The translations under genes were made by a program, and so were the position numbers. From NCBI RefSeq assembly GCF_028641065.1, contig NC_073390.1:18414001-18478000 (forward strand): 64,000 bases of DNA, written 5' to 3'. Below, piece by piece: positions 6,591 to 62,529 of this stretch. Origin of the DNA: Leucoraja erinacea (Eukaryota). The first letter of the stretch is position 1. Each line of letters starts with the position of its first letter. Below the pieces are notes generated by a model, which was not told where the DNA came from, did no database searches, and was given only the letters and a program-made list of their open reading frames with translations.

Positions 6591-6650
6591 TAGCCTAATG
6601 GTAACCATTGTTAGGTGTTGATTGGTTGCTAAAGGTAACAATAACTGTTG

Positions 6651-6815
6651 CATGTTTAAGAAGGAACTGCAGATGCTGGAAAATTGAAGGTAGACAAAAA
6701 TGCTGGAGAAACTCAGCAGGTGAGGCAGCATCTATGGAGGGGTTCGACCTGAAACTTTGCCTTCGCTCCATAGATGTTGCCTCACCCGCTGAGTTTCTCC
6801 AGCATTTTTGTCTAC
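6651..6815. mobile_element. Penelope-derived short fold-back element with 12-bp TSD
   Basis: Inverted arms at 6690-6739 and 6766-6815; direct repeat caataactgttg at 6639-6650 and 6816-6827; degenerate hammerhead stem II (ggggttcgacctgaaac) in the loop. Confidence 0.8.
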
Positions 6816-6896
6816 CAATAACTGTTGTATTCCTCGTTTCACTCTTTCTCGTGAAACAAACAGAGAAATGTTTAATTATATTCCAAAGAATAGCAC

Positions 6897-7010
6897 AGGC
6901 GGCACTGTGGCTTAGCAGTAGAGTTGTTTTCGTACAGCGCCAGACATCATGGTTCGATCCTGACTAAGGGTGCTGTCTGTACAAACAGAGTTTCTACATT
7001 CTACCTGTAA
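6897..7010 (+). mobile_element. V-SINE 5' (tRNA-derived) fragment
   Basis: ggcggcactgtggcttagcagtagagttg...ggttcgatcctgact A/B boxes. Confidence 0.7.
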
Positions 7011-8249
7011 ACCCTTGGAAAGTGCCTGGACCTGATGGTATGCCCGGTAGCTCCCACAACTGTGGCTGGCAACCTGCCAGGGAACTGTGGTGCACCAAAA
7101 GGGGGAGAAAATCTTTCTGGCCTTTTACACCTGTATCCGGAGCAACCCCCCCCCCCCCCCCCCCCCCCCACTTACTGCCTCATCGGTGCTGACCGGGCCG
7201 GTCTGGCATCATGTCGTGTGGGTTCTGCACCGTCTCGACTTTCTGCGGCCTTGGAGCCTGGAGCTAACGAAGCCTCCTTTCTCTCGGCAAGACCAGCTTC
7301 CATCAATAAAGACTGCAAGCAAATCCCTTTTGTTGCTGCAGGAGCAGCGAAGGCCGTCTGAGATTTCCTGCGTAAGTCTGCAGCTCGCCAGGGAATGCAG
7401 GATAGCTGAAATAGATGGGTGAAGAGGTGGTGATGCAACAGTTTCCATGGGAGCCGCCATTACCGACGTTTGAGGTGACACGACTTGCCTCCCTCCCTCG
7501 AACTGTTCCATATTGTTTTTGTGTGTGGACTTGGCCTCATCCCATTTGGACTGTCTGTGTCTGTCTGGCACTTTGTTTAAGGGCTTTGCTTAAATTGTAG
7601 CGCCTGATACCATGCAGCGTCGGTGTTCTGGGGGTTCGGGGCCTTCCGGGTGCTATTCAAAGGCGGCTGTTTCAGCTGCTTCAGCTGCTCCTATTGGGGC
7701 CCAGTTCCCCATGAGGAACCCGCCTTTCAACATGGGATAAGGTGCTACTTGCCCCCCCCAGATGAACCTGGATGACCGCGCGGCTGTCGTGACCATGGCG
7801 GCCAAGCCTGCAGGTGTCCTGTACTTGGGCAGGATGTTTGGGATGACCGTGTTCTTCCTCGATTCTGTTAGAAACATAGAAACATAGAAATTAGGTGCAG
7901 GAGTAGGCCATTCGGCCCTTCGAGCCTGCACCGCCATTCAATATGATCATGGCTGATCATCCAACTCGGTATCCTGTACTTGCCTACTCTCCATACCCCC
8001 TGATCCCTTTAGCCACAAGGGCCACATCTAACTCACTCTTAAATATAGTCAATGAACTGGCCTCAACTACCTTCTGCGGCAGAGAATTCCAGAGATTCGC
8101 CACTCTCTGTGGGGAAAAAAGTTTTCCTCATCGCGGTCCTAAAAGATTTCCCCCTTATCCTTAAACTGTGACCCCTTGTTCTGGACTTCCCCAACATCGG
8201 GAACAATCTTCCTGCATCTAGCCTGTCCAACCCCTTAAGAATTTTGTTT

Positions 8250-9526
8250 CTATAAGATCCCCCTCAATCTTCTAAATTCTAGCGAGTACAAACCGAGTCT
8301 ATCCAGTCTTTCTTCATATGAAAGTCCTGACATCCCAGGAATCAGTCTGGTGAACCTTCTCTGTACTCCCTCTATGGCAAGAATGTCTTTCCTCAGATTA
8401 GGAGACCAAAACTGCACGCAATACTCCAGGTGTGGTCTAACCAAGACCCTGTACAACTGCAGTAGAACCTCCCTGCTCCTATACTCAAATCCTTTTGCTA
8501 TGAATGCTAACATACCATTCGCCTTCTTCACTGCCTGCTGCACCTGCATGCCTACTTTTAATGACTGGTGTACCATGACACCCAGGTCTCGTTGCATCTC
8601 CCCTTTCCTAATCGACCACCATTCAGATAATAATCTACTTTCCTGTTTTTGCCAGCAAAGTGGATAACCTCACATTTATCCACCACATTATACTGCATCT
8701 GCCATGTATTTGCCCACTCATCCAGCCTATCCAAGTCACCTTGGAGCCACCTAGCATCCTCCTCACAGCTAACACTGCCCCCCAGCTTCGTGTCATCCGC
8801 AAACTTGGAGATGTTGCATTCAATTCCCTCGTCCAAATCATTAATATATATCGTAAATAGTTGGGGTCCCAGAACTGAGCCTTGCGGTACCCCACTAGTC
8901 ACTGCCTGCCATTGTGAAAAGGACCCGTTTACTCCTACTCTTTGCTTGCTGTCTGCCAACCAGTTCTCTATCCACATCAATACTGAACCCCCAATACCGT
9001 GTGCTTTAAGTTTGTATACTAATCTCTTATGTGGGACCTTGTCGAAAGCCTTCTGAAAGTCCAGATATAACACATCCACTGGTTCTCCCTTATCCACTCT
9101 ACTAGATACATCCTCGAAAAATTCTATAAGATTCGTCAGACATGATTTACCCTTCATAAATCCATGCTGACTATGTCCAATGATGTCGCCACTTTCCAAA
9201 TGTGCTGCTATCCCATCTTTAATAACTGATTCTAGCAGTTTCCCCACTACCGATGTTAGACTAACTGGTCTGTAATTCCCCGTTTCCTCTCTCCCTCCTT
9301 TTTTAAAAAGTGGTGTTACATTAGCTACCCTCGAATCCTCAGGAACTACTCCAGAATCTAAAGAGTTTTGAAAAATTATCACTAATGCATCCACTATTTC
9401 TGGGGCTACTTCCTTAAGCACTCTGGGATGCAGCCTATCTAGCCCTGGGGATTTATCGGCCTTTAATCCATTCAATTTACCTAACACCACTTCCCGGCTA
9501 ACCTGGATTTCACTCAGTTCCTCCAT
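8250..9526 (-). pseudogene. CR1 ORF2 reverse transcriptase domain and C-terminus (frameshifted)
   Basis: [56 protein letters not shown]. Confidence 0.95.
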
Positions 9527-9821
9527 CTCATTTGACCCCCCGGTCCCCTGCTATTTCCGGCAGATTTTTTATGTCTTCCTTAGTGAAGACAGAACCAAAG
9601 TAGTTATTCAATTGGTCTGCCATGTCCTTGTTCCCCATGATCAATTCACCCGTTTCTGACTGCAAGGGACCTACATTTGTTTTAACTAATCTTTTTCTCT
9701 TCACATATCTATAAAAGCTTTTGCAGTCAGTTTTTATGTTCCCTGCCAGTTTTCTTTCATAATCTATTTTCCCTTTCCTAATTAAGCCCTTTGTCCTCCT
9801 CTGCTGGTCTCTGAATTTCTC

Positions 9822-10763
9822 TCAGTCCTCTGGTAGGCTGCTTTTTCTGGCTAATTTGTACGCTTCATCTTTTGTTTTGATACTATCGCTGATTTCCCTT
9901 GTTATCCACGGATGCACTACCTTCCCTGATTTATTTTTTTGCCAAACTGGGATGAACAATTGTTGTAGTTCATCCATGCAGTCTTTAAATGCCTTCCATT
10001 GCATATCCACCGTCAACCCATTAAGAATCAATCGCCAGTCTATCTTGGCCAATTCACGTCTCATACCCTCAAAGTTACCTTTCTTTAATTTCAGGACCCT
10101 TGTTTCTGAATTAACGATGCCACTCTCCATCCCAATGAAGAACTCAACCATATTATGGTCACTCTTGCCCAAGGGGCCACGCACAACAAGACTGCTAACT
10201 AACCCTTCCTCATTACTCAATATCCAGTCTAGAATAGCCAGCTCTCTCGTTGGTTCCTCTACATATTGGTTTAGAAAACTATCCCACATATATTCCAAGA
10301 AATCCTCTTCCTCAGCACCCCTGCCAATTTGATTCACCCAACCTATATGCAGATTGAAGTCACCCATTATAACTGTTTTACCTTTGTTGCGCGCATTTCT
10401 AATTTCCTGTTTGATGCCATCCCCAACTCCACTACTACTGTTAGGTGGCCTGTACACAACTCCCACTAGCGTTTTCTGCCCCTTAGTGTTTTGCAGCTCT
10501 ACCCATATCGATTCCACATCCTCAAAGCTAATGTCCTTCCTTTCTATTGCGTTAATCTCTTCTCTAACCAGCAACGCTGCCCCACCTCCTTTCCCTTTCT
10601 GTCTATCCCTCCTGAATATTGAATATCCCTGGATGTTCAGCTCCCAGCCTTGGTCACCCTGGAGCCATGTCTCCGTGATCCCAACTATATCATAGTCATT
10701 AATAGCTATCTGCACATTCAACTCATCCACCTTATTACAAATGCTCCTTGCATTGAGACACAA
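9822..10763 (-). pseudogene. CR1 ORF2 apurinic endonuclease domain
   Basis: CLNARSI, GITETWL, GVVYRPP, MGDFN, LGKSDHNMVEF motifs. Confidence 0.95.
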
Positions 10764-12603
10764 AGCCTTCAGGTTTGTTTTTACAACACTCTTACCCCTT
10801 ATACTATTATGCTGAAAAGTGGCCCTTTTTCATTTTTGCCCTGGATTTGCCGGCTTGCCACTTTTACTTTTCACCTTGCTACCTATTGCTTCTACCCTCA
10901 TTTTACACCCCTCTGTCTCTACGCTCACATATTTAAGAAACCCTTTCCCTTTAACTCCATCCTCCACTATCCCATTTGACACTGTTGAGGGGGTGAATGC
11001 GGCCGTGAGTATAGGGATCTCAGTGGGGGGAACATTCCTGCAGGTCGAGCCCTTAGGGATCACCGCGCAGCGGGTGGTCCTGTCCAGTATACTGCCCTGC
11101 ACTACAAATGAAGCCCTCCTTCCCCACCTTCACACCCCAGGGAAGGTACTCACGGACATCACACCGATATCCCTCGGGTTCCGCAGGGAAGAGCTGCGGC
11201 ACGTTCTTTCCCTCCGGCGCCAGCTGATGATGCTGCTGGACCGGGAGGAGGTAGTTGATGGGCGCTTCTGTGTCCAGCAGGATGGATGTGATTTCACCAT
11301 CTACTGGACATCGAGTGCCCAAGGTGCCATGCCTGTAAGGAAGTGGGGCATATTCGGAATTGCCGCAAATCCTCTGCCTCTGGTGCCACTAACCCCCCTC
11401 CTCCCTCCCGCTCCCAACCCCCTGGAGTTGAGTCAGGGTAGCCTGGGGTTGCGCAGAGCACTGGTGGGGGTGGGAAGGGACACAATGTGGCAAAGAAGAT
11501 GGGAGACAGAACCCCCAGAGCCACGAACTTTCCACCCATCCCGTCACCTCACGTTAGGGCGTCCGCAAGCCCCATAATCCAACTGAGGGCGAGGGGGATC
11601 GGGCGGGAGGAGGGGGTGCTGCAGGCGAAGGTTGCTCAGGTGACCCGAGAGTCTGTGAACTCCCCATCGAAAAACAGAAGGAGGAATCTCTCTAGGGAGG
11701 AGCGGAAAGGGGACGAATGGGAATCCTCCAGGGGGGAGGGGGTACTGTGGTGGAGGAAGACTTCCGCCCTCTGATTCGGACCCCTCTTTTCTTCAGGGGA
11801 TTCTGGGCCCAACTGGTGGAGGGATGGATGCCCCCCACTGTCGATGGTCTTGACTCCCCGGGTACATCTGGGGAAGACCCCTCTGCCACTGGCCCCAGGG
11901 TTGGAACTGAGGTGGAGGAGAGACCAGCGGGTGGGGCGGTGGCAACCGCCGAACAGGGTGGGGCAGGAGAATCGAGCACTCAGGGCGTGGATGGGGATGG
12001 TGACTCCATCTGCAGTGAGCGGGTGGAAGGGGACTCCTCCGACAATGACTCAATGGATGTATTCGCTCCCCCAACGCCAGTGGAGGAAATCCGCGAGTAC
12101 ATAACGGCCACCGAAGGAGCGCAACATCGACCCAGACTGGCCTCCCTCTGGTGGCCAAACTTACATGTGCTCACCAGCTCGCTGAACTTTATCCTCAAAA
12201 GAAGGGGGAGGGGAAGGAGGTGCAGGGGGTGAAGGGGAATGACCTTGAGATGGACGCCAAGGCCAAGTACAGTTATGTTCTTGCTGAGATTAGATGGACC
12301 AGTAGAGCATCCCTTGTAGCCAAGGTCCAGAGGGCAAGGAGCACCGCCACTACACCTAGGGTCTGTAGGGGATGGAGCGGCTCTGCTGTCAGCGACCGTA
12401 GGACTGGTGATGGGATCTAGGGAGAGGGTAGGGCCGAAGATGTCCTGGTTGGGTTGCTCCTAGGCCTGGCCAAGCTGGCTATCCGTGAGTCACGGCACCA
12501 GGTGGGAAGAGGGCTTTGCCCGAACCGGATTCGTGCCCCTTTTACGCCATGCCCGGGCCGTGTTAGAGAGGGACATGGTTGTATAGTGGTTATTTAGTAT
12601 ATT

Positions 12604-12930: not shown

Positions 12931-12931
12931 T

Positions 12932-13060
12932 CTGAAGGGTTTCGGCCCGAAACGTTGCCTATTTCCTTTGCTCCATAGATGCTGCTGCACCCGCTGAGTT
13001 TCTCCAGCATTTTTGGGTACCTTCGATTTTCCAGCATCTGCAGTTCCTTCTTAAATACAA
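12932..13060 (+). mobile_element. Penelope-derived short element with a damaged hammerhead core
   Basis: ctgaagggtttcggcccgaaacgttgcc...gatgctgc...ctgagtttctccagc...ccagcatctgcagttcc; 3 nt missing from CTGAAGAAG. Confidence 0.8.
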
Positions 13061-13171
13061 ACATGTACGTTTAATCATCTTTTGGAATTCGGAAGAGGTG
13101 CAGCGGTCCATTTAAACATCTTTGTGCATCACTGTGACGCTGCAGAAATTTGTTTTAAAAGTTTCTGCATG

Positions 13172-14237: not shown

Positions 14238-14537
14238 TAGTGGCAAGATGCTGTAAGGTTGCAAACTCGTTTGCTCCCTTAACTTTTAACTTCCATTTAC
14301 CACTCTTTCAATGTTACTTGTGACTATTTGACTTCAAGACACGGTCTAACGTCTCATAAAGTGTTGACAACACTTTTACATGCCTTAAACCTTTTACATG
14401 CTGGTCGGCGCGGACTCAGTGGGGCAAAAGACCTGTTTCAGCACTGTATCTCAGAAACTAAAACTAAAATATGTCATGATATTTTAAGACTGCAATGGTT
14501 CCAAATGAAGCAGTCAAAACAGCTGTTGATATAATAA

Positions 14538-14734
14538 GTGTTTAAGAAGGAACTGCAGATGCTGGAGAATCGAAGGTTACACAAAAAAGCTGGAGAAACT
14601 CAGCGGGTGTGGCAGCATCTATGGAGCGAAAGAAATAGGCAACGTTTCGGGCCGAAACCCTTCTTCAGACTGAAGAAGGGGTTCGGCCCGAAACGTTGCC
14701 TATTTCCTTCGCTCCATAGATGCTGCCACACCCC
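14538..14734. mobile_element. Penelope-derived palindromic element with two head-to-head hammerhead cores and a 15-bp TSD
   Basis: 64-bp inverted arms at 14605-14668 and 14670-14733; TSD ctgttgatataataa at 14523-14537 and 14735-14749. Confidence 0.9.
14670..14700 (+). ncRNA. Minimal type I hammerhead ribozyme motif (mirror copy on the minus strand at 14638-14668)
   Basis: CTGAAGA-A-GGGG(TTCG)GCCC-GAAAC-GTT; the minus copy is CTGAAGA-A-GGGT(TTCG)GCCC-GAAAC-GTT. Both match the CUGANGA...GAAA...NUH core. Confidence 0.6.
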
Positions 14735-18578: not shown

Positions 18579-18752
18579 NNNNNNNNNNNNNNNNNNNNNN
18601 NNNNNNNNNNNNNNNNNNNNNNNNNNNNNNNNNNNNNNNNNNNNNNNNNNNNNNNNNNNNNNNNNNNNNNNNNNNNNNNNNNNNNNNNNNNNNNNNNNNN
18701 NNNNNNNNNNNNNNNNNNNNNNNNNNNNNNNNNNNNNNNNNNNNNNNNNNNN
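18579..18752. other. Assembly gap (174 N), followed by a C/T-rich low-complexity tract to ~18870
   Basis: Run of N characters. Confidence 1.
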
Positions 18753-19472: not shown

Positions 19473-19734
19473 GGTGTGCGACAGATAAAACGCAACTTCT
19501 ATTGGAGACCCAAGTAACTGAAGATGCTGGAATTTTTAGTAAAAGTGCTGGAGAAACTCAGCAGATCAGGCATTGTCTGTGGAAGGAATGAATGGGTGTT
19601 GTTTTGTGAAGGAATCCTTCTTGTGTCTGATCATGATAGGGCAAAGAACGCTTCAAAAATAGTGGGGGAAGGGGGGGCGGGACTAAACTTAGCAACTGAT
19701 GTGGATTTATGTGAGGGGGTTTAATTGGCAGATG

Positions 19735-21245: not shown

Positions 21246-21600
21246 TGGTGAGACCAAGCATAGGCTTGGCGATCATTTCGCCGAACACTTGCGCTCGGTC
21301 CGCATTAACCAACCTGATCTCCCTGTGGCTCAGCACTCCAACTCCCCCTTCCATTCCGAATCCGACCTTTCTGTCCTGGGCCTCCTCCATTGCCAGAGTG
21401 AGCACCACCAGAAATTGGAGGAACTGCACCTCATATTCCGCTTGGGCAGTCTGCATCCCGGTGGCCTGAACATTGACTTTTCCAATTTCTGGTAGCCCTT
21501 GCCATCTCCTCCCCTTCTCAGCACTCCCTCAGCCCTCTCGCTCCTCCTTTTCCTTTCTCCTACCCTACATCAGTCTGAAGAAGGGTTTTGGCCCTAAAAG
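21246..21600 (+). mobile_element. Penelope-like element 3' fragment (GIY-YIG end + 3' UTR with degenerate hammerhead at 21575)
   Basis: GETKHRLGDHFAEHLRSVR...KLEELHLIFRLGSLHPGGLNIDFSNF*. Confidence 0.85.
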
Positions 21601-21629
21601 GGACCAGTCTCTCAGAATACCTGTTTAAG

Positions 21630-22250: not shown

Positions 22251-23292
22251 GTCCCTCCTCATTGTTACATTTTTCACCTTCCTCTCACATTTTCCTTGTA
22301 TATCTTTACCTAAAACATCAGGAATTATACAGATATCATCAGTTACTTTGTTGAAAACCTGCAAGTTATTCACTAATGTTTTGCCACATTTCTCAAGGGA
22401 AGTGATAGTTTGTGGGAAGTTTACAAAATTGGAAGCAATAAACACAAGATCGCGGTGGAGGAACTTTTTCTGCATGATTTCACTGACTATCCTGACTGCA
22501 GCAGATTCTTCCTCAAAACAGTTGACGAATTATTTTATGTTTTCGAAATTTGCAGCAAAGTAGAGTACAGCAGAGAGCCATGTATCCCACCTAGTCAAAA
22601 CGGGCTGAGGAGATAGCGGAATCTCAGGTGCCATTTCCTTGAACATGCTTTGAGGAAGATTTTCTTGACATTGGAAACTAGGCGATCAACATTTGGAAAC
22701 AATCTATGTATGTGCTTGACAATTCGATGAAGTTCTTGAGCTGAGCATGTCAAATGCAACATTTTGGGGGAATAAAACTTTAAGAGCACGAGCAGCTTTT
22801 TTTAATGTTCGGAGCTGCATCAGTCACAAACAGAAGAACATTCTCGTGTTTTATATCTTTTGGCCAAAGATCAGCAAGTGAAGATGTAAACAACTGAGTA
22901 ATAGTTGAGCTGTTTGACTTCTCCAATACTTCCAATGTCAACAAATAGTCCTTTGATGGTTGACCTTCCTACAGTGAACCAATGACCACATTGGCAACAT
23001 ATCTCCTCACAACATCGGTTGTTTCATCTATTGAGATCCATATTATTTTGCATGCAACTTCAACTCTAATTTTCTGCACAACAATGTTGAAGTTGATGTC
23101 ACTATAATTTTTCCGTAATTATGACTCGCTTAGTATATGTTCCTCTGTGTATTTCTCTAAAAAAAACTCTGGAGAGATTTGTTTTCCAATTTCCAAATGG
23201 AATTCCAGCATCAATGAATGTCTTGCACAGACCACTCGAAAACTCAGATTTGCGACTGGAGCCAGCAGTAAATGTAGTGAGGAGACAAGCTT

Positions 23293-23610
23293 GGGTATTT
23301 CGCTTGTGTAGTCTACACCCCAGCAATATCAACATTGACTTCTCTAATTTTAGATAGCCCTTGTCTTCTCCCTCGTCCCCCTCACCCTTTCCAGCTCTCC
23401 TTCTAGTCCTACTGTCTCTGCCTCTTTTTTTCTACCTGTCTCTACCTTTCTTTTTCCCAACTCCGCCCCCCACATCAGTCTGAAGAAGGGTCTCGACCAG
23501 ACACGTCGCCTATTCCTTCTCTCCATAGATGCTGCCTCACCTGCTGAGTTTCTCCAGCATTTTTTGTCTACCTATGATTTTTCCAGCATCTGCAGTTCTT
23601 TCGTAAATAA
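23293..23610 (+). mobile_element. Penelope 3' end with hammerhead-like motif (23480-23507), nested in the hAT fossil
   Basis: FRLCSLHPSNINIDFSNFR*, a pyrimidine tract, then cagtctgaagaagggtctcgaccagacacgtcgcc...gatgctgcc...ccagcatctgcagttc. Confidence 0.85.
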
Positions 23611-23619
23611 ATCTTGGAG

Positions 23620-24200: not shown

Positions 24201-24664
24201 TTCCAAGATCCAAGAAATCACGGTACAACTAGAGAAAATAACACAACCTTTGAGCAAAATGGCAAAAAAAGGCTGATTTTGGCAATCGATCGTGAAAAAG
24301 GCATTATCCTGGTGAAATCATCAAAAAAGGCATGAAAAGGCACATGGCATTTATGGCAAAATCCTGGCTCTAGTTATCTGCCATACATTTCCTCCTTAAT
24401 TATAACTACCTATTTCTTGCTAGATCTTACCACACCCCCTCTCCCCATCGCTTTCTAGTGGCCACTCTTCCTCCACTCTTTCAGTCATGACCTGAAACGT
24501 CGACTCATTTCACTCCACAGATGCTGCCTGACCCCATCGAGTTCCTCCAGGGAAGAGTGGCCTACCCATGCTCGTATTTTCTTGTGTTTTCTTGTGAATT
24601 AAATAACCAACTATGTCTGAATATATCAGTGGATGTTTCAAGAGAAGCATCAACATGGACACCA

Positions 24665-25615: not shown

Positions 25616-26065
25616 TTTTAATTAGTCTCAAATTCCACCTGAATTATACAGGCAGGCAGAACTTAATTTAGGATCTCTCCAGAAAATGAATCAGTGGTTG
25701 CTCAGAATGTTATTGCATGGATGAACATCGAAAACAAATCATCATTCAGTGACTCATGTTGGCAGTTGCTCTTTTTTGTATTCTGATGTAACCTGCAAAT
25801 TCAATATCAATTTTATTAATAAAAAGGTGACAATGATTAAGTACTTTAAGTCTTGCTGGGAAGATTTCTTGTACAATTTCAATATAAGCAAACCTAATTT
25901 AATTAAAGCTGCACTAGATTAAAAGGAAGTAATATTTCAGTCGGCATGCTTTTAAAATTGAATGTTAAAAATTTTTGTTTAGCCACAAGGAACCTCAGAA
26001 GCTGGTTTTCACAAAGTGCGGGAGTAACTCAGTGGGACAGGCAGCATCTCTGGAGAATATGGATA

Positions 26066-26100
26066 GGTGACGTTTCGGGTCGGGACTCTTCTTCAGTCTG
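26066..26100 (-). ncRNA. Minimal hammerhead ribozyme motif in a Penelope-derived short element (~25985-26150)
   Basis: Minus strand reads caga-CTGAAGA-A-GAGTC(CC)GACCC-GAAAC-GTC-acc; core and GUC cleavage triplet intact, one mismatch in stem II. Confidence 0.6.
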
Positions 26101-26154
26101 ATTGTAGTAGGAGGGAGAAAGCTGGAAGATGGGACTGGTGGTAAAATCACATTA

Positions 26155-27295: not shown

Positions 27296-27390
27296 TAGAT
27301 AAAACTTCTGGAGAAACTTAGTGGGTGAGGCAGCATCTATGGAGCGAAGGAAATAGGCAACATTTCGGGTCGAGACCCTTCTTCAGACTC
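27296..27390 (-). mobile_element. Penelope-derived short element with hammerhead core (preceded by a CR1 3' fragment at ~27140-27295)
   Basis: Minus strand reads gagt-CTGAAGA-A-GGGTC(TC)GACCC-GAAAT-GTT-gcc. Confidence 0.8.
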
Positions 27391-32890: not shown

Positions 32891-33581
32891 GTCAATGCAG
32901 CCGGTGGTAGCTGGCAGGTTTTGTCAAAGACAGGTTTTGAATTGAAGCACATACATTGTGTGGGACTGTACTAGTCAGCTGACATTATCAAGTTGAATTT
33001 TATTTTGTAAGTTTTGTTTATTCTGCTCTTTAGATTGGCTGAGTTGTTGTGTAAAACATAACCAAATTGGAAATAAAAGAAAGCTGAAAAAATAACATTT
33101 TGCTCTTCACCAATATGGGTTTTTTTGTTATAAGAGTATTAAGCTTATTTGTGTTGGCTATTTGAGATACCACAGAATGTGGTAGCACTATGTCTATGGT
33201 TTGGCAACATTGGTGACATTAATCTGAGACCTGTTCTACAACATTATTGACCACAAGGGAACACAGACCAGTTTATGTATCAAAGATCTGGTGGCGGGCT
33301 CTGTTTATGTTGTATTTGAATCCTACTTGCAATATGTTCAACAGGAAAATGTGGAATTATACAAACATTAGTTATGTGAACTGGAGAAAATTGAAAATGT
33401 CAAAGCTTTTCAAGGTTCTTAGACCATATGACGATAAGACCTAGGAGGAGAATTAGTCTGTTTGGCCCACCATGTCCACTCTGCCATTCATTCATGCTTG
33501 ATCTATTTTTCCCTCTCTACCAATTCTCCTACCTTCTCCTGATACCATTTGATGCCCTTACTAATCAAGACCTATCAATCG

Positions 33582-33685
33582 GTAGGTACACAAAAATGCT
33601 GGAGAAACTTAGCGGGTGCAGCAGCATCTATGGAGGAAAGGAAATAGGCAACGTTTCGGGCCAAAACCCTTCTTCAGACTTCTTA
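33582..33685 (-). mobile_element. Penelope-derived short element inserted in a CR1 3' fragment (~33420-33830)
   Basis: Minus strand reads agt-CTGAAGA-A-GGGT(TTTG)GCCC-GAAAC-GTT-gcc. Confidence 0.8.
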
Positions 33686-35560: not shown

Positions 35561-36699
35561 ATCAATGCACCATACCTCTACCGTGCAACCAGAGAATCAT
35601 GAGACAATGATTCTGACAAAAGGGTGTCTGTGATTTTGATCGACAGAACACCGTTTGTTACCTACTTGAGGTTTGCCTTCGAATTGTGCATAGGTGCCAG
35701 CACTCCTCTCAGTCAAAAGGGAAGCAAACTGCTGAAGGAACTCAGCAAGCCAGGCAGCATCTGAGGAGGAAAATGGACTGACAGCACTTCAGGTCATAAG
35801 GTCATAAGTCATAAGGAATAATAGTAGAATTAGGCCATTCAGCCCATCAAGTCTACTCCACCATTCAATCATGGCTGATCTATCACTCTCTCCTAACCCC
35901 ATTCTCTTGCCTTCTCCCCATAACCTCTGACACCTGTGCTAATCAAGAAAGTTGGGACCATTTTCAGTCTAAAGAAGGTTCCTGGCTCAAAATGTCATCT
36001 GAAATCCTCCAGCACCTTGTTTTTGTTCAACATCCTCGCATCTGCTGTCTCCTGTGTCCTCAAATTCAGGGTCATTCCTCTCTGTCAACAAACTTGCTGA
36101 AAGATCTTACAAAGGTACCTCAACTGTGATTTACAAACATCATTTTTCTGGAATTGAGTATTGTTAGGAAGATCATAATTTATTGTCCATACCCAAATGC
36201 CTTTGAGCTACAGTCTTGAACCATTATCATATTTGCCACCCCCAGCAACCCATTCCAAGCACCCACCACCTTTTGTGTAAAATAAATTCCCTGCACATCC
36301 CCATTAAACCTTACCATTCCCTGCACATCCCCATTAAACCTTACCCCTCTCACCTTAAAGCTAGGCCCTCTAGTATTTGACATTTCCACCCTGGGAAAAA
36401 AGTTCAGACTCTCGACACTAAATAGGCCTCTCATAATTTTATATACTTCCATCTGAAGATAAATCCTTGTTAATGATAAGTGTTAAGTCATCTAGAAATA
36501 TGGAACATTTATTAGCACTGTATTTTTCAGAATTTTGCACAAATCAATTTAGTGTGACAAAGTCTGAACACAATGGCTTTGATTTTTGCAACTTTAATTT
36601 GGAGGAAGATTCCGCTCATTAAATGTTGGATATCAGACCAGCAGACAGTTTAGAGATAGTGGAATGTTCAAAGGAGATGATGATAATGCAAAATGGGTG

Positions 36700-41576: not shown

Positions 41577-42124
41577 TCTAATCAAGAATCTGTCAATCTG
41601 CACCTTAAAAATACCAAGTGACTTAGCCTCCACATCTGTGGCAATGAATTCCACTGATTCACTACCCTATGATTGCAGAAATTCCTTCTCATCTCCATTC
41701 TAAAGTTATGTTTCTGGATCTATGGCCTCTGGTCCTAGACTCTCCCACCAGTAACAGGTCAAAAACCATTTGAGGAGGTAAATGGATGGTCGATGTTTCT
41801 TGTCGAGACCCTGGATCAGTCTTGACAAGTCGACCATTCCTTTGCTTCTACTGATGTTGCTTAACCTGCTGAGTTCCTCCAGCAGGTTATTATTTGCTCC
41901 AGATTCCTGCATCTGCAGTCTCTAGTGTCTCTCTTGCATTATCTTAATTTTCATTGACTAGACTTTTTAGTGGTCCCAGAAGATATACTTCTGTCAGCAA
42001 CCCCAGCTATGAGAAGAACTGTCCAGGTTTGTGGCCTCATTAAGTTCATTTTCATCATGGCTTGTTCAGGAGGTTAATCCTGTCAGTGCTCTGGCAGTTT
42101 ACCACATGAGTAATTGCAAACGTA

Positions 42125-45789: not shown

Positions 45790-45950
45790 AGAGACAAAAC
45801 GATGGAGTAAAAGAAGGTCTGAAGAAGGGTTCCGATCCAAAGCATCACCTAGTCCTTTTCTCCAGAGATGCTGCCTGACCTGCTGAGTTACTCCAGCATT
45901 TTGCATCTATCTTCAGTGTAAGCCAGCATCTGCAGTTCCTTCCTACACAC
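45790..45950 (+). mobile_element. Penelope-derived short element
   Basis: aggt-CTGAAGA-AGGGTTCCGATCC-aaagc-ATC-acct (stem I aggt/acct is complementary; GAAA is degenerate), then the gatgctgcctgacc...ccagcatctgcagttcc tail. Confidence 0.75.
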
Positions 45951-46239: not shown

Positions 46240-48825
46240 CACTAGGAACTCGACCTCCGTCTACTCACCTGCCCTCCTCTCGGATAACCCACCAGTTCCC
46301 CACCAGACATCTCCTCGGGTTTGATCTACTCACCTGCCATAATCCGACCCCACCCCCCACCCTTGCTGTGTGTTAACCATCCCCCCTGACCTCTCTCTTT
46401 CTGATACGGAACGGTCTCTCCTCAGCAGAGGCCTCACCTTTATTCCCCTTCACCCCCACCTCAACGAGTTCCGGGTCCACCACGATGTAGAGCTCTTCTT
46501 CCGTTGCCTCCGCCTCCAGGCCTTTTTCTATGGGAAGGAGTCCTCACCACCTAGTGATGACCCTTTCTCCCACCTCCAACAGGCCCCTTCCTCTTGGACT
46601 CCACCAGATGGCCATCGAACTTCTTTAGACCTTTTCATTTCGAACTGCCGGCAGGAAATCAACCGCCTCAAATTTTCCACTCCCCTTACTCACTCTAACC
46701 TCCCCCCCCCCCGCCAGAACGTACAGCCCACCACTCACTCTGCAGTAACCTCGACTGGATAATCAAACCTGCCGACAAGGGAGGTGCCGTGGTAGTCTGG
46801 CGCGCTGACCTCTACTGGACTGAGGCCAGGTGACAACTCTTAGACACCTCCTCGTCCTTATCCTTTGACCATGACCCGCAGATGATCACCAGTCTTAATC
46901 TCACTCACCATTACTGATTTCATCACTTCCGGCTCTCTGCCCTATAAAGCCTCCCTTATCGCTCTCCAGCCCCGCACAGCCCAATTTTATCTTCTCCTCT
47001 AAATCCACACACAGAACAGTCCTGGCAGATCCATTGTTTAATGTTCCACCAAATTGTTTTCCACAGTGGTGGAGGCAGGTTCGTTTTTATCATTTAAAAA
47101 TGAATTGGATAGTTATATGGATGGGAAAGGAATGGAGGGTTATGGTCTGAGCGCAGGTATATGGGACTAGGGGAGAATACGTGTTCGGCACGGACTAGAA
47201 GGGTTGAGATGGCCTGTTTCCGTGCTGTAATTGTTATATGGTTATATGGTTATACCTCGACTGCATCCTATCCCCCCCTGGTTCAATCCCTCCCAACCTA
47301 TGTCCAAGACACCTCACATGCTCTTCGTCTCCGCAATTACTTCCGTTTTCCAGGCCCCCACTCCCTCATCTTTACTATTGATGTCCAGACACTCTACCAG
47401 GAGGGTCTTGAAGCCCTCCATTTCTTCCTCGACCACAGAACCAACCAATTTCCATCTACCAACATTCTCCTCCTCTTAGCAGAGCTGGACCTTACCCTCA
47501 ACAACTTCTCCCTCGACTACTCCCACTTCCTCCAAATTCAAGGCGTAGCCTGGGCCCTAGCTAATGCCTGCCTCTTTGTAGGGTACGTCGAACAATCCCT
47601 GTTCCAGGCATACACTGGCCCAAACCCCGAACTCTACCTCCGCTACATTGATGATTGCATTGGTGCTACCTTCTGCACCCATGCAGAAATTACTGACTTC
47701 ATCAACTTCATCACTAATTTTCATCCCGCACTCAAATTCACTTGGACCATCTCCGACATCTCCCTACCATTTCTAGATCTCACCATCTCTATCACAAGAA
47801 ACAGACTATTGACCAACATCTACTTCAAACCTACTGACCCCCATAGCTATCTTCACTACACTTCTTCCCACTCTGTTTCCTGTAAAGACTCTATCCCCTA
47901 CTCCTAATTCCTCCGTCCATGACGCATCCATTATAGATGAGGCTCTCACTAGGGTTTCTGCGACATCCCGCAGCTCTGCTCTTACTCCCCCTCCCCCATT
48001 CGTAACAAGGACAGAGTCCCCCTTGTCCTCATTTTCTACCCCATCAGCTGTCACCTACAGCATATAATCCTCCAACATTTTCGACACCTCAAACGGGATC
48101 CCTCTATTGACTACATCTTCCAATCTCCACCCCTTTCTGCTTTCCGCAGAGACCATTCCCTACGAAACTCCCTGTCAACTCATCCCTTCCTACCCAAACC
48201 ACCCCCTCCCCAGGTACTTTCCCCTGCAGGAGATGCAACACCTGTCCCTTTACCTCCCCCCTCGACTCCATCCATGGACCCAAAAAGTCTTTCCAGGTGA
48301 GGTAGAGGTTCACATGCACCTCCTCCAACCTGATCTACTGTATCCGCTGTTCCAGGTGTCAACTTCTCGACATCGGCGAGACCAAGCGCAGGCTTGGCGA
48401 TTGTTTCGCTGAACACCTTCACTCAGTCGGTCATAACCTACCTGATCTCCCGGTTACTCATCACTTCAACTCCCCCTCCCATTCGCAATCTGACCTTTCT
48501 GTCATGGGCCTCCTCCATTCTCAGAGTGAGGCCCAGCGCAAATTGGAGGAACAGCACCTCATATTTCGCTTGGGTAGCTTACACCCCAGCGGTATAAACA
48601 TTGACTTCTCTAACTTCAGATAACCCTTGCTTTCTCTCTCCATCCCCTTCCCCTTCCCCTTCCCCTTCCTCCCACTAGTCTTACTGTCTCCAAATACATT
48701 CTATCTTTGTCCTGCCCCCTCCCCTGATATCAGTCTGAAGAAGGGTCTCGACCCAAAAACGTCGCCCATTCCTTCTCTTCTGAAATGCTGCCTCACCCGC
48801 CGAGTTACTCCAGCATTTTGTGTCA
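46240..48825 (+). mobile_element. Penelope-like retroelement (RT + GIY-YIG endonuclease), degraded, with 3' hammerhead-bearing terminus
   Basis: LSRGLTFIP, IIKPADKGGAVVVW, YLRYIDDCIG, SLPFLDLTI, CTSSNLIYCIRCSRC..L.IGETKRRLGDCFAEHL, FRLGSLHPSGINIDFSNFR*; ctgaagaagggtctcgacccaaaaacgtc at 48735-48763. Confidence 0.92.
47065..47253 (+). mobile_element. CR1 3' fragment nested in the Penelope element
   Basis: gtggtggaggcaggttcg...atatggttatatggttata, same as 37545-37732. Confidence 0.85.
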
Positions 48826-49782
48826 TCCAGGAATTATTAAATGTAATTGCATTCACAGCTTAACATCTTTTGCAAAACCACAACCAATTACTGAAACATG
48901 TGTCTATAAAAACATGTGTATAAAACCATGAGAGGAATAGATCGGGTAGATGCACAGTCTCTTGCCCAGAGTAGGTGAATCGAGGAACAGAGGACATAGG
49001 TTTAAGGAGAAGTGGAAAAGATTTAATAGGAATCTGATGGGCCTTTCTCTCTAAACGAAACTAAACTAAATGGAAATAACAAATGCTGCATACCACTATG
49101 ATCTAATGCAAGGGTTCCCAACCTGGGGTAAACCGGTGACGGTTCGGCAGCTCTTGAGGGTCTCCCCCCCGCCCGCACACAATGCAGCACCACCGTTGCC
49201 AGGACTGTTTTATAGCTAGTGACCTATATCCTGGGCATGCGCAGTCGGAATACCAAACTCGCTTATTCTACATGACAAGCACAAGGTTCTGAGTGAACAA
49301 TTACATTTTTCTTGCCAATTATCAAACAAGAAGCCAGACAAAGTCATGAATCAACAATTGTTTATTAACTGTAACTTCATATTTAGCAGCATTTAAACAT
49401 AGGGTATGAAAATAATTAGTGGATAGGGCTCATTGACAAAATAAATAACAGATGTTACTTTCCAATTTTACAAAGAAGCCCTTCTAAATCAATTGTGAAA
49501 CCAACTGTGAGAACCATATATAAATGTGAGGTATCTTTCCTGCAAAATAAACTAAAGGAACTTGAAGGTGAAATAGGTGGAAAACATGGGTAGAAACATT
49601 GGAGATTGCAACCTTCACATGGTCCACCCTGTTTCAACTAATGCAATCAACCCGACGTGCACAAACAAATAGATGTAGTGTTTTGGCGTCACTTTTGACC
49701 ATGCCACTGGTGACTCGTAACTCAAATGGCCCTTACTAGGGCCAAAACTCCTGCAGCATTAAGAAATCTCTATGCATCTACC

Positions 49783-53220: not shown

Positions 53221-53352
53221 GAGTCTGAAGAAGGGTCTCGACCCAAAACGTTGCCTGTCCATTCCTTCTATAGATGCTGCCTGACCTGCTGAGTTCATCC
53301 AGCAGTTAATGTTTGCTCAAGATTCCAGTATCTATAGTTCCTGGTGTCTTCA
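53221..53352 (+). mobile_element. Penelope-derived short element
   Basis: gagt-CTGAAGA-A-GGGTC(TC)GACCC-aaaac-GTT-gcc...gatgctgcctgacctgctgag. Confidence 0.8.
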
Positions 53353-53357
53353 TAAGG

Positions 53358-54262: not shown

Positions 54263-55114
54263 TAGACAAATGATTAACTGAAAAGCAGGAAGTGGTGCAT
54301 AGGAATATGGAGTTCATTTTCAGTTTGGTATTTTTTTTACCAGTTGGGATCAGTCCTGAGAGTACAACTACTTGAAGAATATATTAATGATCGAAGGATG
54401 AGCGAAAATGCACAATAGACACATTTTCCAATGATGGAGAAATAGGTGAGAATGCAAGCTGTGAGAAAGATACAAACAGAGATATCAATAGGTTAAGTGA
54501 GTGGGTAAAAAGTTGGCAAATGGAGTATTGTGTGAGAATTTGTAATGTTGCTCATTTAGAAAGAACAAGAGAACAGTTTTATTCAAAGGGAGAAAAAAAT
54601 ACAACAGTTTGAGGTTTTTTTAAAATGCAGAAAACACAGCAAGCTGGTATGCAAGTGAAGTGGGTAATAGGGAAAGCTATCTGAGAGTTTGTTCAGGGGG
54701 GGGTCGTAGTGTTAAAGTCCTTCTCAAATGTGCAAGGTGTTTGTCAGACCACATCTGGAATGCTGTGAATAATTTTGTTCCCTCTATTTGGGGACGATCA
54801 TTATTCATTGCAGGTGGTTCCCAGAAGGAACACTAGGATCATCATACGTGTGGCGGGACTACCTTGTTTCCTTGGATGGTGGAGTTCTGAAGCAGAAGAC
54901 ATGGTTTCTGAATAAGGAGATACTCAATTAAGACTGAAATGAGAGATATTTCGTACTTTCAGGGGGTTGTGAATCTCTTTTGTCTAAATTGTTGCGAGGA
55001 GTGTCAACAAACATGGTGCATCACATAAGGAGATGATCGATGGATATGTATAAGATATAGTTAGATTTGGAGAAAAGTTAGATTTGAAGAAATGAAAGGA
55101 TCATAAAATTATCA

Positions 55115-55312
55115 TAAAGTGCTGGAATAACTCAACAGGTCAGGAAGCAACTGTGGAGGACCTGGATAGATAAAGTATCAGGTCCGGACCCTTCTTTAGA
55201 CCGGCAAAATACAAAGGATTGAAGCGTGGAGAAGGTGTCTCATCTTGAAACGTTGCCTATCCATGTCCTCCACAGATGCTGCCTGATCCGCTGAGTGGGT
55301 CCAGTATTTTCT
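55115..55312. mobile_element. Degraded Penelope-derived fold-back pair
   Basis: Minus copy (aaagtgctgg...gacccttctttagac) followed by a plus copy (gagaaggtgtctcatcttgaaacgttgcc...gatgctgcctga). Confidence 0.7.
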
Positions 55313-55469
55313 GAAGTGATTCAATGGTGGGTTACCACAGCATTTGTGAGAACAGGCATGGATGAACTTCAAATGCTTGTGATACGAACGTCCCAGAATA
55401 GTTACATTTAAAAAACAAATACTCATTTATTTTATTTTCCCCAGGCAGGTCTTTGTTTTTATTAGTTTT

Positions 55470-57730: not shown

Positions 57731-57912
57731 TAGAAACAAGGAACTGCAGATGCTGGTTTACACACAAGGACACAAAGTGCTCGAGTAACCTCTGGAGAAA
57801 ATGGATAGGTAATGTTTCGGGTCGGGACCCTTCTTCAAAAAACGTTACCCCATCCATGTTCTCCAGAGATGTTTCCTGACCCACTGAGTCACTCCAGCCC
57901 TTTGCATCCTTT
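57731..57912. mobile_element. Penelope-derived fold-back pair
   Basis: Minus copy ending gtttcgggtcgggacccttcttca directly abuts a plus copy aaacgttacccatcc...ctccagagatg. Confidence 0.75.
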
Positions 57913-58335: not shown

Positions 58336-59186
58336 CAAGTTAAGTCAAGTCAACTTTATTTGTCACAAACACATACAAGATGTACAGTGAAATGAAAGTG
58401 GCAATGCCTGCGAGATTGTGCAAAACAACAGAACAACAGAACAACAGGACAGAACAGAACAGAACCAGTATTTACATTTATAAAAATACACAACAGTAAT
58501 TACTCCCTGGTGAGATCAGAGTTTACAGTTCTGCTGGCATGTGGGAAGAAACTCCATCTCATCCTCTCTGTTTTTCCAGCGTGACAGCGGAGGTGCTCGC
58601 CTGACCGTAGCAGCTTGAACAGTCCGTTGCTGGGGTGGTAGGGGTCCTTCATTATCTTGCTGGCTCTGGATCTGCACATCCTGGTGTATAGGTCCTGCAG
58701 AGTGTGGTTCCCATGGTGCATTCGGTCGAACGCACTACTCGTAATCGAACATGCAAGTGCTGCATACTGTCCTAAGCCGAGCTGTTGCCAAACCAGATCG
58801 AGATGTTTCAGGACAGGATGCTTTCTACAGCACCAGAGTACAAGGATTGAAGGATCCTCAGAGAGACTCTGAATTTCCTCAGCTGTCTGAGGTGGTAAAG
58901 GCGCTGCCTTGTCTTTCTCACCAGTGCGGCAGTGTGTGTTGTCCATGTCTGATCCTCTGTGATGTGGACTCCCAGGTATTTAAAGCTGCTCACTCTATCA
59001 ACAGTAATCCCATTTATCCCCAGTGGCGTGTACGTCCTCGGTTGTTGTGCCCTTCTAAAGTCCACAATCAGCTCCTTAGTTTTAGTAACATTCAAGAGGA
59101 GGCTGTTGTTCTGACGCCAGAGTGCCAGGTCAGCCACCTCCTCCACGTAGGCCTTCTCATCGTTATCGGAGATCAGGCCCACCACA
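58336..59186 (-). mobile_element. Rex1/Babar LINE 3' fragment (a further small piece at ~59290-59402)
   Basis: VVGLISDNDEKAYVEEV, LNVTKTKELIVDFRR, FKYLGVHI, IMKDPYHPSNGLF; (CTTGA)n-type tail. Confidence 0.9.
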
Positions 59187-60536
59187 TGTACCTAGAAACA
59201 ATGATTTATTTTGTTTTTGCATACAATACTGCCAAGATGCGTCCTTTTTTGCTCTTGGTGGCCCACCTGCCAGATCCCTCTTTGCTCTCAGCAACATGAG
59301 GTGAGAGTCAATGGAAGGGAGGTTGGTATGTGTGATGGTCTGGGACACGTTCACAATTTGCTGCAATTTTTTGTGATCTTGGATGGAGCTGTTCCAAAAT
59401 AGGCAGAAAAAATAAGTCCAAAAAATAAGACCAACAGGTGTTGTTGGTTATAACAAGACCATGATCCAAGCTTTTTATTTTTTAAAAAATAGATAGAGCT
59501 ACCATCCCCTCCTTTGTTGTCCAGGCCGTAGCAGGTTTGCATCTTTCAGACTCTAGAATCATGCAAAATACGTATACAAAACAAGTACTTGGCAAGGTAT
59601 CATTTCCTCGCTTTCCTCCCCAAACGATACAGGCCATTCGCATACCCAGCCGACTTGCAATGCAATGCAAAGGTAATGCAACAAATCAATCTCAAATTCC
59701 CATTGAAACTTATCATTATCGAGTAAAAATTATCAACTAATGTTTATAACTTCCTGAAATGTAACTAAGAGAAAAAAGTGCATTACGTGAAAATTATATT
59801 TCATAGTGGCAGAATTTACAGCAACTAGAGAAAAATACGGATGTTAATCAGGATACTTGTTTGTCCTAGTTCGTCACATTTGTACAACTAGTTGTTGCAA
59901 TAGAGACAGGATTAGTACAATGTCTTCTGGTCATCTGCAGTTTATGCAAACAGGGCAAAGAAGGCGATTGTAAATCCATGACTGTTTATGCTGAGTAAGC
60001 ATCAATAATGAGTGCAGAATTAAGTAATTTAGAAAGGTGAATTCAGCGTCAACTCAGAGAGAGAATTTTAAGTATACAAGGTAGAAAACGAAACAATCGT
60101 AGAGAAAAAGGGGAAATAAAGAAAATGTTAAAAATGAGTTCATAAATCTCCAATCGCAATTAAAATATACATGAATATGATCCCGTTTCATAAAAGTAAC
60201 AATTCGGTACTGGAGAAATCTTTCAGTGCCGCTTAATGGTGTCACAAATACAGACACCGGTAGACGTAGACAAATCTAATTTTCTATGGCATCTTTATTT
60301 TGTAATAGGCTGTGGGCCGAAGAGCTTTTTCATTCAAGTTTGTGACCCAACTCGCGGAGCTACCTGAACTTTTAACATATTGTGTAAAAATATTGTATAA
60401 ATCAAACCTGAAATTCGTCAAGAACAAAACCTGCACATTTTTAAAAAATATGACAAAAACATCCAATTTTCCGAATAATAATTGTCCAATCAATGCACGT
60501 TTGACATTGAGGTCGGGCGCAAATTGACCAATCCCA

Positions 60537-60562
60537 AGGGTTAGGGTTAGGTTTAGGGTTAG
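60537..60562 (+). repeat. Interstitial telomeric-type repeat (TTAGGG)n; second tract at 61423-61445
   Basis: agggttagggttaggtttagggttag and ttagggttagggttaaggttagg. Confidence 0.85.
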
Positions 60563-60639
60563 TCGGTCAGTCGGTCAGTCCGTCAGTCTGTCGTTCGAGC
60601 CTGTCGGTAGACCAAAGGATGCTGCGGAGGATCTGTCGG

Positions 60640-60975
60640 GCTGTCGGTGGGTGGTGAGAGTGGTCGGGCCGCCGGTGGGTCATGAGATTGAGTGGCCGGT
60701 CCATTGGTGGGTCGTGAGAGTGACTGGGCCTCCAGTGGGTCGTGAGAGTGGCCGGTCCATTGGTGGGTCGTGAGTGGCCGGGCCGCCTGGATGGTGAGAG
60801 TGGTCAGTCCATTGGTGGGTCGTGAGAGTGGCTGGGCCGCCGGTGGATAATGAGAGTGGTCGGTCCATCGGTGGGTGCTGCGAGCGGTCAGACGCCCAGT
60901 GGTGCTGCGAGGGGTCGGTCGGGCGGTCGGACAGCCAATGGTGCTGTGAGGGGTCGGTCAGGCTGTCGGACGGCC
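60640..60975 (+). repeat. GC-rich minisatellite (~26-28-bp units, then ~40-bp units)
   Basis: Alternating gagagtggccggtccattggtgggtcgt / gagagtggctgggccgccggtgg units, then gtgctgcgaggggtcggtc...cgga units. Confidence 0.8.
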
Positions 60976-61185
60976 AGTGTTGCAGCAAGTAAGCGGCAGT
61001 CGAACAGAGCCGGCATTATGGTGGTGCTGAAGGCGGCCCATGCAGGGCAGTGCTGCACCCCACCGTCACCACCGCGATGATCGAGAAGTGCATGCTGGCC
61101 GAGGTGGAGCGCTGCGGGGCCACACTTACGGAGCCTGCAGCCGGTCCCAAAGCTCCAGTGGCAGCTCTGGAAGGGGGGAGAGTTG

Positions 61186-61422
61186 AGGGCCTGTCCCACT
61201 TTCACAACCTAATTCACAACCTTTTTTACTCATGGACATTTTTTATCATGCAAAAAAAATGCCCCGACCTACTTGATGCCACGAGTACCTACGACTAGCA
61301 TCACGACCTCCTACGACTGACCTACGACCTCCAATGACCTTGTGACGACCATGCTGAGAGTATGAGTCAAGGGCAAACTTGGCAGATGTCGTGAATTAGG
61401 TCATGAAAGTGGGACAGGCCCT
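61186..61422. mobile_element. MITE related to 15558-16085, nested in the TIR element
   Basis: TIRs agggcctgtcccactttca.aacctaattcac / gtgaattaggtcatgaaagtgggacaggccct; shares gaccatgctg...atgagtc.aggg.aaact with 16010-16045. Confidence 0.85.
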
Positions 61423-61730
61423 TTAGGGTTAGGGTTAAGGTTAGGCATTTTCTTGTCAGTGGAAGATGTCTTAGCCTTCCCCCAGTCTGCCACTGCCCCT
61501 GTCCCAATATAGCCGTGACCCCCTCTCTGGACACTGGCAGTCAGTGAGGTTCAGTAAACGGGGGAACCCAGAGGAACTGCCCTCACCCATTAATTAGGCT
61601 GGTTCAGGAGCCGAACCTCTGCGGCAGTCTCATTCAAAATACACATAATTATATTAATTATATTATTTTTATATGTTTAAATAGACCTAAACACGGAAGT
61701 AGGCTCCCCATGGTGTATTATGAGCATTGG

Positions 61731-61745
61731 ACACTAGATGGCGCT
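61731..61745 (+). promoter_or_regulatory. CTCF-like motif
   Basis: ACACTAGATGGCGCT closely matches the vertebrate CTCF core CCAC(C/T)AG(A/G)(T/G)GGCGC; binding is untested. Confidence 0.35.
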
Positions 61746-62529
61746 TACTTTTTCGATCTAATTTTCGAATTAGTTTAATTAATTAATATGCAACTTTTGG
61801 CATTGACGAGTTATGACTTCCTTCTCAATTATATTTTATCTAGTTCTGTGCAAAATTTCATGTTGTTCCGAGACATGGGTCACGAAAATTGATTTCCAGA
61901 TACATTTTTGATGCTCGGCCCACAGCCTATAAACAAGGCACAAATACAGGAGACACAAGGAACTGCAGATGCTGATTGACGAATAAACTAAGTGCTGGGA
62001 CAGTTCAGTGGGTCAGGCAACATCTCTGCAGGACACGAGAAGGCAATATTTTAGCTCAGAATCCTTCTTCAGACAAGAATAGTCTTCTTTAGGCATTTTA
62101 TTTGAAACTAAGTGGTATGATACCTTTTTGTTTAGGCTTTCCAAAGTGGATTGTGGGTTACAAATTGTGGCGTGCTTTAATGTGACCACACTATTCTGCA
62201 TTGATTGTCCAGTTTGCACATAAATAAAGGTGATTCCTTTGGTCCCTTTTTTGAGGGAAACTTTATTCAAATATTCCCAACTATTTTACTTTCAAAGTCC
62301 AATTTTTGTAAAAGTTAAAACAATTTTGAAAAAGGTCTCCTGGTGATTTAATGATAGATACCTGAAAGGAATAAACAAATATAGATGGACTGTTACAAGC
62401 AGTAGCATTTTCTTGGAACAAGTTGAGATCAGTATACAGAGTTTACACATAAAAAAAACCTTATTAAATAGCTAAAGGAATATAAATGAGACCTTACAAT
62501 CATTCTGATGTTCTCACGTATAGAAGTTG

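Follow-up and report, generated by a model that had tools for sequence, protein, structure and literature searches.

The question raised by this 64,000-nucleotide stretch of the Leucoraja erinacea genome (contig NC_073390.1, positions 18,414,001 to 18,478,000; the window below) is how a short, hammerhead-bearing module came to be repeated throughout it. The first-pass annotation saw in the module a non-coding, retrozyme-like or SINE (short interspersed nuclear element)-like family, processed by its own ribozyme and mobilized by the reverse transcriptase (RT) and GIY-YIG endonuclease of a Penelope-like element (PLE). According to the present analysis, the module is very probably the pseudo-long-terminal-repeat (pLTR) end, a minimal hammerhead plus a 'tail', of a PLE with RT and GIY-YIG domains. 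At a probability of about 65%, the copies are dead pLTR-end insertions, made as the element's RT/GIY-YIG protein began reverse transcription at the upstream pLTR's tail and reached a fixed 5' end of the RNA, likely a transcription start, after about 100–140 nt.

The module and its parent element

A profile of the module was built from six window copies and searched with nhmmer against the whole window. At E<=3.2e-4, 24 arms at 18 loci were counted. The best match in the reversed window had E=0.53, and three extra forward matches were weak (E>=0.08). All 18 positions listed in the first-pass annotation were recovered and no others, and its estimate of about one copy per 3–4 kb agrees with the measured density of one locus per 3.6 kb. 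The arms total about 2.4 kb, or about 3.8% of the window.

The copies linked to an open reading frame (ORF) or to its 3' untranslated region (UTR), together with the ORF itself, are as follows.

46250..48623, + strand: decayed, 5'-truncated PLE ORF with N-terminal region, RT, CxxC linker and GIY-YIG end (protein matches)
48624..48826, + strand: pyrimidine-rich 3' UTR and hammerhead module (core 48735), without tail
21247..21598, + strand: GIY-YIG end, 3' UTR and 5' half of the hammerhead (core 21575)
23277..23602, + strand: short ORF end, 3' UTR, module (core 23480) and tail, inside a transposase-like remnant
24484..24550, + strand: module with its 5' core deleted, downstream of a pyrimidine-rich stretch

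The module is placed at the end of a pLTR because it follows the GIY-YIG stop by 80 nt at 21575, 123 nt at 23480 and 112 nt at 48735. A hammerhead in a terminal repeat 3' of the ORF was thus found at three loci. A fourth copy, at 24490, had also been assigned to GIY-YIG coding sequence; it has lost its 5' core, and its link across the remnant is plausible only. The module matches the end of the ORF-bearing copies, and the earlier attribution of its mobilization to the Penelope RT/GIY-YIG protein is taken as right.

The 46250–48623 ORF is broken at about 47065–47250 by another repeat. Of 1011 candidates, 55 are related to its RT part, and the best are from skates, rays and sharks at 74–62% identity, the best elasmobranch match being 74% identical. 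The homologue P0006 matches RVT_1 and GIY-YIG, both below the gathering score, and the endonuclease piece of the window is 50% identical to it. For the decayed ORF pieces of the window themselves no Pfam match was obtained, and the combination of RT and C-terminal GIY-YIG in one ORF is seen through the matches of these pieces to RT+GIY-YIG proteins. A CX2-5CxxC linker upstream of GIY-YIG is present in the window ORF and in its homologues. This linker occurs in the clades Neptune and Nematis and not in Penelope/Poseidon (PMC8557442). Because it is present, the parent element is predicted to be of the Neptune/Nematis type; Poseidon was dropped as a parent label, since the linker motif contradicts it.

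The 21575 copy is cut short, and a second ORF piece (21599–22105) directly adjoins it, giving a partial tandem (21247–22105). More fragments of the same ORF are located at 44976–45358 (− strand, N-terminal region) and 63876–64000 (+ strand, GIY-YIG part cut by the window edge). The PLE end at 23277–23602 sits in its remnant with a possible 6-bp duplication. The remnant itself (about 22311–24370, − strand) is decayed and transposase-like, with only a weak match to DUF659 (E=0.028), a domain that we take to be a marker of hAT elements.

Four public runs, the DNA runs X1, X6 and X3 and the poly(A) RNA run X22, were aligned to 48000–48900 at 80% likeness. The depth is near 0 at 48620–48712, as the 3' UTR of the 48735 copy is too divergent to align. 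Summed over DNA contigs, the depth (which does not equal copy number) of the GIY-YIG end against the module was 6.5 and 8.9 million in X1, 7.3 and 8.5 million in X6, and 8.5 and 9.0 million in X3, whereas the flank has a depth of 22–42. ORF-bearing relatives are plainly very common, because depth differs little between the GIY-YIG end and the module in all three DNA runs.

The module family is not a new kind of sequence. It is a further instance of a known one, a very common PLE of a skate- or ray-like genome. Dispersed PLE minimal hammerheads were already reported in 2014, at thousands per vertebrate genome (Cervera and de la Pena, PMC4209133), and the same report describes dispersed single motifs as 'probably related to truncated PLEs' and opposite-strand pairs 100–700 bp apart. 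As a 'new ribozyme-bearing family' the module is ordinary, and its remaining value is mechanistic. In the literature searched, we found no earlier account of this module family or of a fixed PLE 5' end; Repbase/Dfam, subscription papers or supplements may hold one. Two pattern scans of metagenome contigs gave no module loci.

Anatomy of the insertions

The copies without coding sequence had been described as standing alone. According to the alignment of the arms, seven loci (6651, 14538, 35725/35962, 41770, 45790, 55115 and 57731) are instead head-to-head inverted pairs with their 3' ends outward, and 33582 probably carries a 5-nt inverted stub. Short inverted stubs were also sought at 53221, 46250, 21247 and 63876, where the scores were at or near chance. 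The insertions are as follows.

6651..6815, unstranded: inverted pair, tail on left arm, 12-bp exact duplication
12932..13058, + strand: single arm with tail, 3 nt lost in the core, abutting an oppositely oriented CR1-like fragment
14538..14734, unstranded: inverted pair, both arms from the fixed 5' site, junction 14665-14673, tail on left arm, 15-bp exact duplication, both cores intact
19505..19678, − strand: old arm with tail, reaching upstream of the core
25975..26141, − strand: arm whose two core halves are intact, with 3' UTR of about 45 nt
27296..27389, − strand: single arm without tail, beginning at the fixed site
33581..33685, − strand: tailless arm with an intact core and a probable 5-nt inverted stub of the tail, 12/14 duplication, within a CR1-like fragment
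35722..36065, unstranded: old inverted pair, into which a 150-bp repeat (35798-35950) inserted later
41757..41925, unstranded: old inverted pair, tail on right arm
45791..45950, + strand: arm with tail and 24-nt inverted arm, 12/13 duplication
53222..53345, + strand: arm with tail, beginning at the fixed site; an inverted stub of 8-11 nt is possible but not above chance
55105..55315, unstranded: old inverted pair, about 25-nt filler, no tail seen
57732..57907, unstranded: inverted pair, tail on left arm
61950..62074, − strand: single old arm with tail, beginning at the fixed site

The 3' ends fall into two classes, at about +90–100 and about +130–140 from the core, without and with a tail of about 35 nt, respectively. 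The tail is present on exactly one arm in six of the seven inverted pairs, and the remaining pair has none. Target-site duplications around the whole unit were detected at 6651 (12 bp, exact), 14538 (15 bp, exact), 45790 (12/13) and 33582 (12/14). Among 400 random pairs from the window, a score of at least 10, as at the first three loci, occurred in 1.5%, and a score of 8, as at 33582, in 11%. As the duplications bound the whole unit, one inverted pair corresponds to one insertion event. Thus the inverted 5' copy, the one-sided tail and the target duplication of endonuclease-bearing (EN+) PLEs are all present.

Inverted 5' copies and a one-sided tail of 30–40 bp are standard PLE features (PMC8557442, PMC3846280, PMC8969392). 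The window elements share with EN+ PLEs the RT with C-terminal GIY-YIG, the CX2-5CxxC linker, the 5' truncation, the partial tandem, the head-to-head inverted copy, the tail at one end and the duplication around the whole unit (PMC8557442, PMC3846280). They differ in that most window units are pLTR-only (100–200 bp) with a common 5' start, and in the duplication length, 12–15 bp as compared with 8–10 bp in rotifer.

The common start is the second main feature. At 11 of the 14 ORF-less loci, the first base of the longest arm falls in a single 6-nt stretch immediately ahead of the core. Such clustering was obtained in none of 200,000 uniform draws over −110 to +60, and P=1.5e-5 over ±20. The copies at 19510 and 26066 run upstream into 3'-UTR-like sequence. 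Random 5' ends had been named as the mark of simple truncated Penelope insertions; the ends cluster, yet they do not lie at the predicted cut site of the hammerhead. The fixed site is about 30 nt upstream of the cut, every long arm retains sequence upstream of it, and no arm starts or ends there. As the long arms start about 30 nt upstream, they cannot be 3' cleavage products. The clustered 5' ends are thus neither cleavage products nor random truncations.

At the fixed site, six of the seven arms that retain it have a YYANWYY heptamer (background 1.1%; the copies are not independent). We take YYANWYY to be the initiator consensus, and the heptamer is thus presumably initiator-like. An additional G ahead of the 5' end, as a cap copy would leave, is present in four of six informative copies; filler or microhomology is possible, and this G was not used. 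A spliced 5' exon was ruled out, as the solo copies share no upstream sequence. PLE transcripts are reported to start in the upstream pLTR (PMC6765202, a review), and an internal TATA-less promoter is described in D. virilis (PMC2377424).

In the region of the module from +46 to the two 3' end classes (e.g. 12932–13058), a 7-nt motif is present twice, each time 10–20 nt before one 3' end class. Both copies of the motif are complementary to one upstream stretch and could mark two priming sites; the folding is at chance level. The inverted pairs at 14538–14734 and 6651–6815 are young, with 94% identity between arms, and would give hairpins of 50–70 bp if transcribed. At the density found here, young inverted pairs could be a large source of double-stranded RNA in host transcripts.

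The hammerhead core

The core is laid out as a type I hammerhead: A9 is followed by one extra A, helix II has 4 bp and a tetraloop, and stem III is palindromic with zero loop. The extra nucleotide and the palindromic zero-loop stem III bear out the earlier description as a PLE minimal type I hammerhead. The minimal hammerheads of metazoan PLE pLTRs agree with it in the type I core, the extra nucleotide that separates A9 from G10.1, the G10.1–C11.1 pair and the palindromic zero-loop stem III, and they are mostly dispersed single motifs with close opposite-strand pairs (PMC4209133). In the window, a YNCG-type tetraloop closes a helix II of 4 bp and helix I is limited to two adjacent pairs, whereas 7–8 and 4–5 bp are usual in the published motifs and 2 bp are given for D. 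virilis; the sharp 5'-end clustering is absent from the accessible part of that description (PMC4209133).

Both core halves are letter-perfect in four of the 17 arms checked, and the others are decayed. The full hammerhead descriptor gave three matches in the window against none in 100 shuffles. Most copies are not intact hammerheads. Many of the core losses, read directly from the aligned cores, fall on CpG sites, as neutral decay would give. With Rfam at E<=1, no hammerhead match was found in the window; five microRNA matches, all far below the gathering score, correspond to the inverted pairs at 6693–6812 and 14600–14738.

Two stem II variants, both preserving the pairing, had been noted. 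Among 19 aligned arms, none of six pairs shows a two-sided change, and 295 of 500 shuffles pair equally well. The variants differ on one side only (U-A or U-G) and in the loop, and no compensatory change is found. A conserved long-range fold of the module was rejected: whole-module folding of five copies is at chance (z −1.1 to +0.9), and none of the five pairs given by RNAalifold is changed two-sidedly. The module was also considered as the start of an ORF; the reading frame is open in some young copies and stopped in others.

The ribozyme processing inferred in the first-pass annotation is not supported: the long arms start upstream of the cut, and no RNA ends pile up at the site in X22, a poly(A) run. 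Nor is the likeness to retrozymes supported. None of the 41 tandem-repeat rows of the window is the module, so that no head-to-tail array is present, and as the inverted arms put the cores on opposite strands, a cis dimer cannot form. The non-LTR retrozymes of animals are likewise non-coding, pLTR-related and equipped with a type I hammerhead, and dispersed monomers occur among them; they are tandem, head-to-tail units with a hammerhead in each and with circular RNAs (PMC7229834; bioRxiv 10.64898/2026.07.22.740005). In the window, no units are head-to-tail, the pairs are inverted, and the cores are minimal and mostly decayed. Most PLE insertions retain a single terminal repeat (bioRxiv 10.64898/2026.07.22.740005).

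Mechanism, alternatives and neighbouring repeats

In the proposed mechanism, transcription of an autonomous element would begin in its upstream pLTR, just 5' of the hammerhead. The element's protein would nick both target strands 12–15 bp apart, and each strand would prime one cDNA, one at the tail and the other at the no-tail site. When priming takes place in the upstream pLTR, the RT would run off the 5' end of the RNA after 100–140 nt, and short microhomology would then link the two cDNAs as an inverted pair. The longer, variably truncated ORF-linked copies would stem from priming in the downstream pLTR. The hammerhead would be carried along uncut and would then decay, without setting the ends. 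The basis of this proposal is the identity of the module with the end of the ORF-bearing copies, the two 3' end classes, the head-to-head pairs within one duplication and the clustered 5' ends; the transcript start itself is an inference. In vitro, the PLE protein of the anole cuts the target on both strands and extends them, with reverse transcription from two internal sites bounding the tail; its main template is uncut RNA, and the hammerhead cuts only with the protein present (PMC11167929).

Several observations weigh against this proposal. The template itself is not seen, as the window contains no full-length element with an upstream pLTR. There are about five modules to each GIY-YIG end, both in the window and in the RNA reads. 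No convincing target-site duplication was found at 14 of the 18 loci. The 5'-end count of 11 out of 14 excludes the four ORF-linked loci and uses positions read by hand from the alignment, that of 19510 being an estimate. The fixed site is also polypyrimidine/CAG, like a splice acceptor, and near-palindromic, and either property could set the end. In X22, module reads are strand-equal (3891 and 3729), which corresponds to passenger transcription, and no site was found where many molecules begin or end, so that a direct sign of a transcription start is missing. The young clade described below has no ORF-linked member in the tree.

X22 comes from a related organism and a fragmented poly(A) library that would lose small circles; with 6% of the run and 13,201 aligned reads it is weak for cleavage, module RNA and the transcript start. 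It gives no support to cleavage, to a module-specific RNA or to the transcript-start reading. As many as 93% of the aligned reads continue into unlike sequence, partly since the 48735 copy has no tail. Among the 24 loose ends listed, one shows many reads that extend at least 11 nt upstream of the core. Reads of the ORF fragment (48000–48620) are biased about 2:1 to one strand, probably antisense, and the module reads are symmetric.

The best surviving alternative, which we consider unlikely, is that the copies come from one or more non-autonomous master loci. These would be SINE-like units of the pLTR alone, with a fixed start and transcription of their own, which the Penelope protein would mobilize in trans with no part for ribozyme cleavage. 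It would account for the fixed 5' ends, and pLTR sequences are enough for trans mobilization in rotifer (PMC3846280). It was weighed with a tree of 21 arms, from which 21575, 35962R and 41770L were left out as short. The sole well-supported branch (97/95) is a young clade of seven arms from five loci, none with an ORF, as expected from a master locus; an extra T is diagnostic of this subfamily. Five ORF-less loci in a row are, however, not unlikely when 14 of the 18 loci are without an ORF, and the short ORF-linked 21575 copy carries the stem II variant of the young clade. The five ORF/UTR-linked rows need five changes on the tree against a shuffled mean of 4.6, and are thus scattered among the older solo copies. 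Of the subfamilies of their own that had been sought for the solo copies, one young solo-only clade was therefore obtained, whereas the remaining solos mix with ORF/UTR-linked copies. An RNA polymerase III head is also lacking, as noted before: the window has no tRNA gene, no tRNA, 5S or 7SL match in Rfam and no common sequence upstream of the solos. Strand-biased module RNA is not seen in X22. For the young solo-only subfamily, a non-autonomous master is possible.

Ordinary 5' truncation from the downstream pLTR is still less likely. Here the RT would stall, or the cDNA would fold back or anneal, at the near-palindrome before the hammerhead, with no transcript start. The arms do meet inside the near-palindrome at 14538 and 35725/35962, arms of one inverted pair share private variants, and no RNA start is seen; palindromes at PLE inverted junctions have been published and read as self-priming (PMC3846280). 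Against this, the unpaired single arms at 27296, 61950 and 12932 begin at the same site. No paired arm passes the site, and in four pairs one arm only reaches it, the junction lying elsewhere.

The retrozyme-like family, in which an RNA unit would be excised by dimeric hammerhead cleavage, possibly circularized, and inserted by the Penelope protein, is largely refuted for the window copies and very improbable: a core that fits the PLE minimal hammerhead, a head-to-tail joint of the module in one X1 DNA contig, and the occurrence in vertebrates, among them one chondrichthyan, of non-LTR retrozymes that derive from pLTRs and have dispersed monomers (bioRxiv 10.64898/2026.07.22.740005) speak for it, whereas the window has neither a tandem array nor an arm end at the cut site, helix I is short, covariation and RNA ends at the site are not found, and the anole PLE uses mainly uncut template with no reads ending at the cut (PMC11167929).

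Returning to priming in the upstream pLTR, we tentatively propose, at less than even odds, that these stubs are the fossil record of a 'strong-stop-like' step of PLEs. Priming on both cut strands would occur at two tail sites of the upstream pLTR, with run-off at the capped end 3 nt before the hammerhead. The commonest PLE insertion of elasmobranchs would then be a fixed-length, ORF-free and often head-to-head unit, whose ribozyme has no 5' arm with which to fold, and the youngest subfamily may be self-standing and non-autonomous. If true, this step explains the long-known inverted pLTRs without antisense self-priming. The sharp 5' end, two 3' end classes and clean duplications of so abundant a family make the origin of PLE inverted repeats and tails testable by counting. 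The results also speak against hammerhead cutting of the RNA that templated these insertions.

Other repeats surround the modules. A fairly intact long interspersed nuclear element (LINE) ORF2 with endonuclease and RVT_1 domains is located at 8250–10829 (− strand), and many short CR1-like 3' fragments lie across the window. Two related ORF pieces at 10816–11577 and 13830–14240 (+ strand) have no Pfam match and are perhaps LINE ORF1. Related RT C-terminal pieces were observed at 53310–54029 (+ strand) and 58500–59191 (− strand); the former matches ALKBH8_N and adjoins the 53221 module at its tail. At about 18575–18750 the sequence is interrupted by a gap of 174 N, and a GC-rich 28-bp minisatellite lies at 60557–60983.

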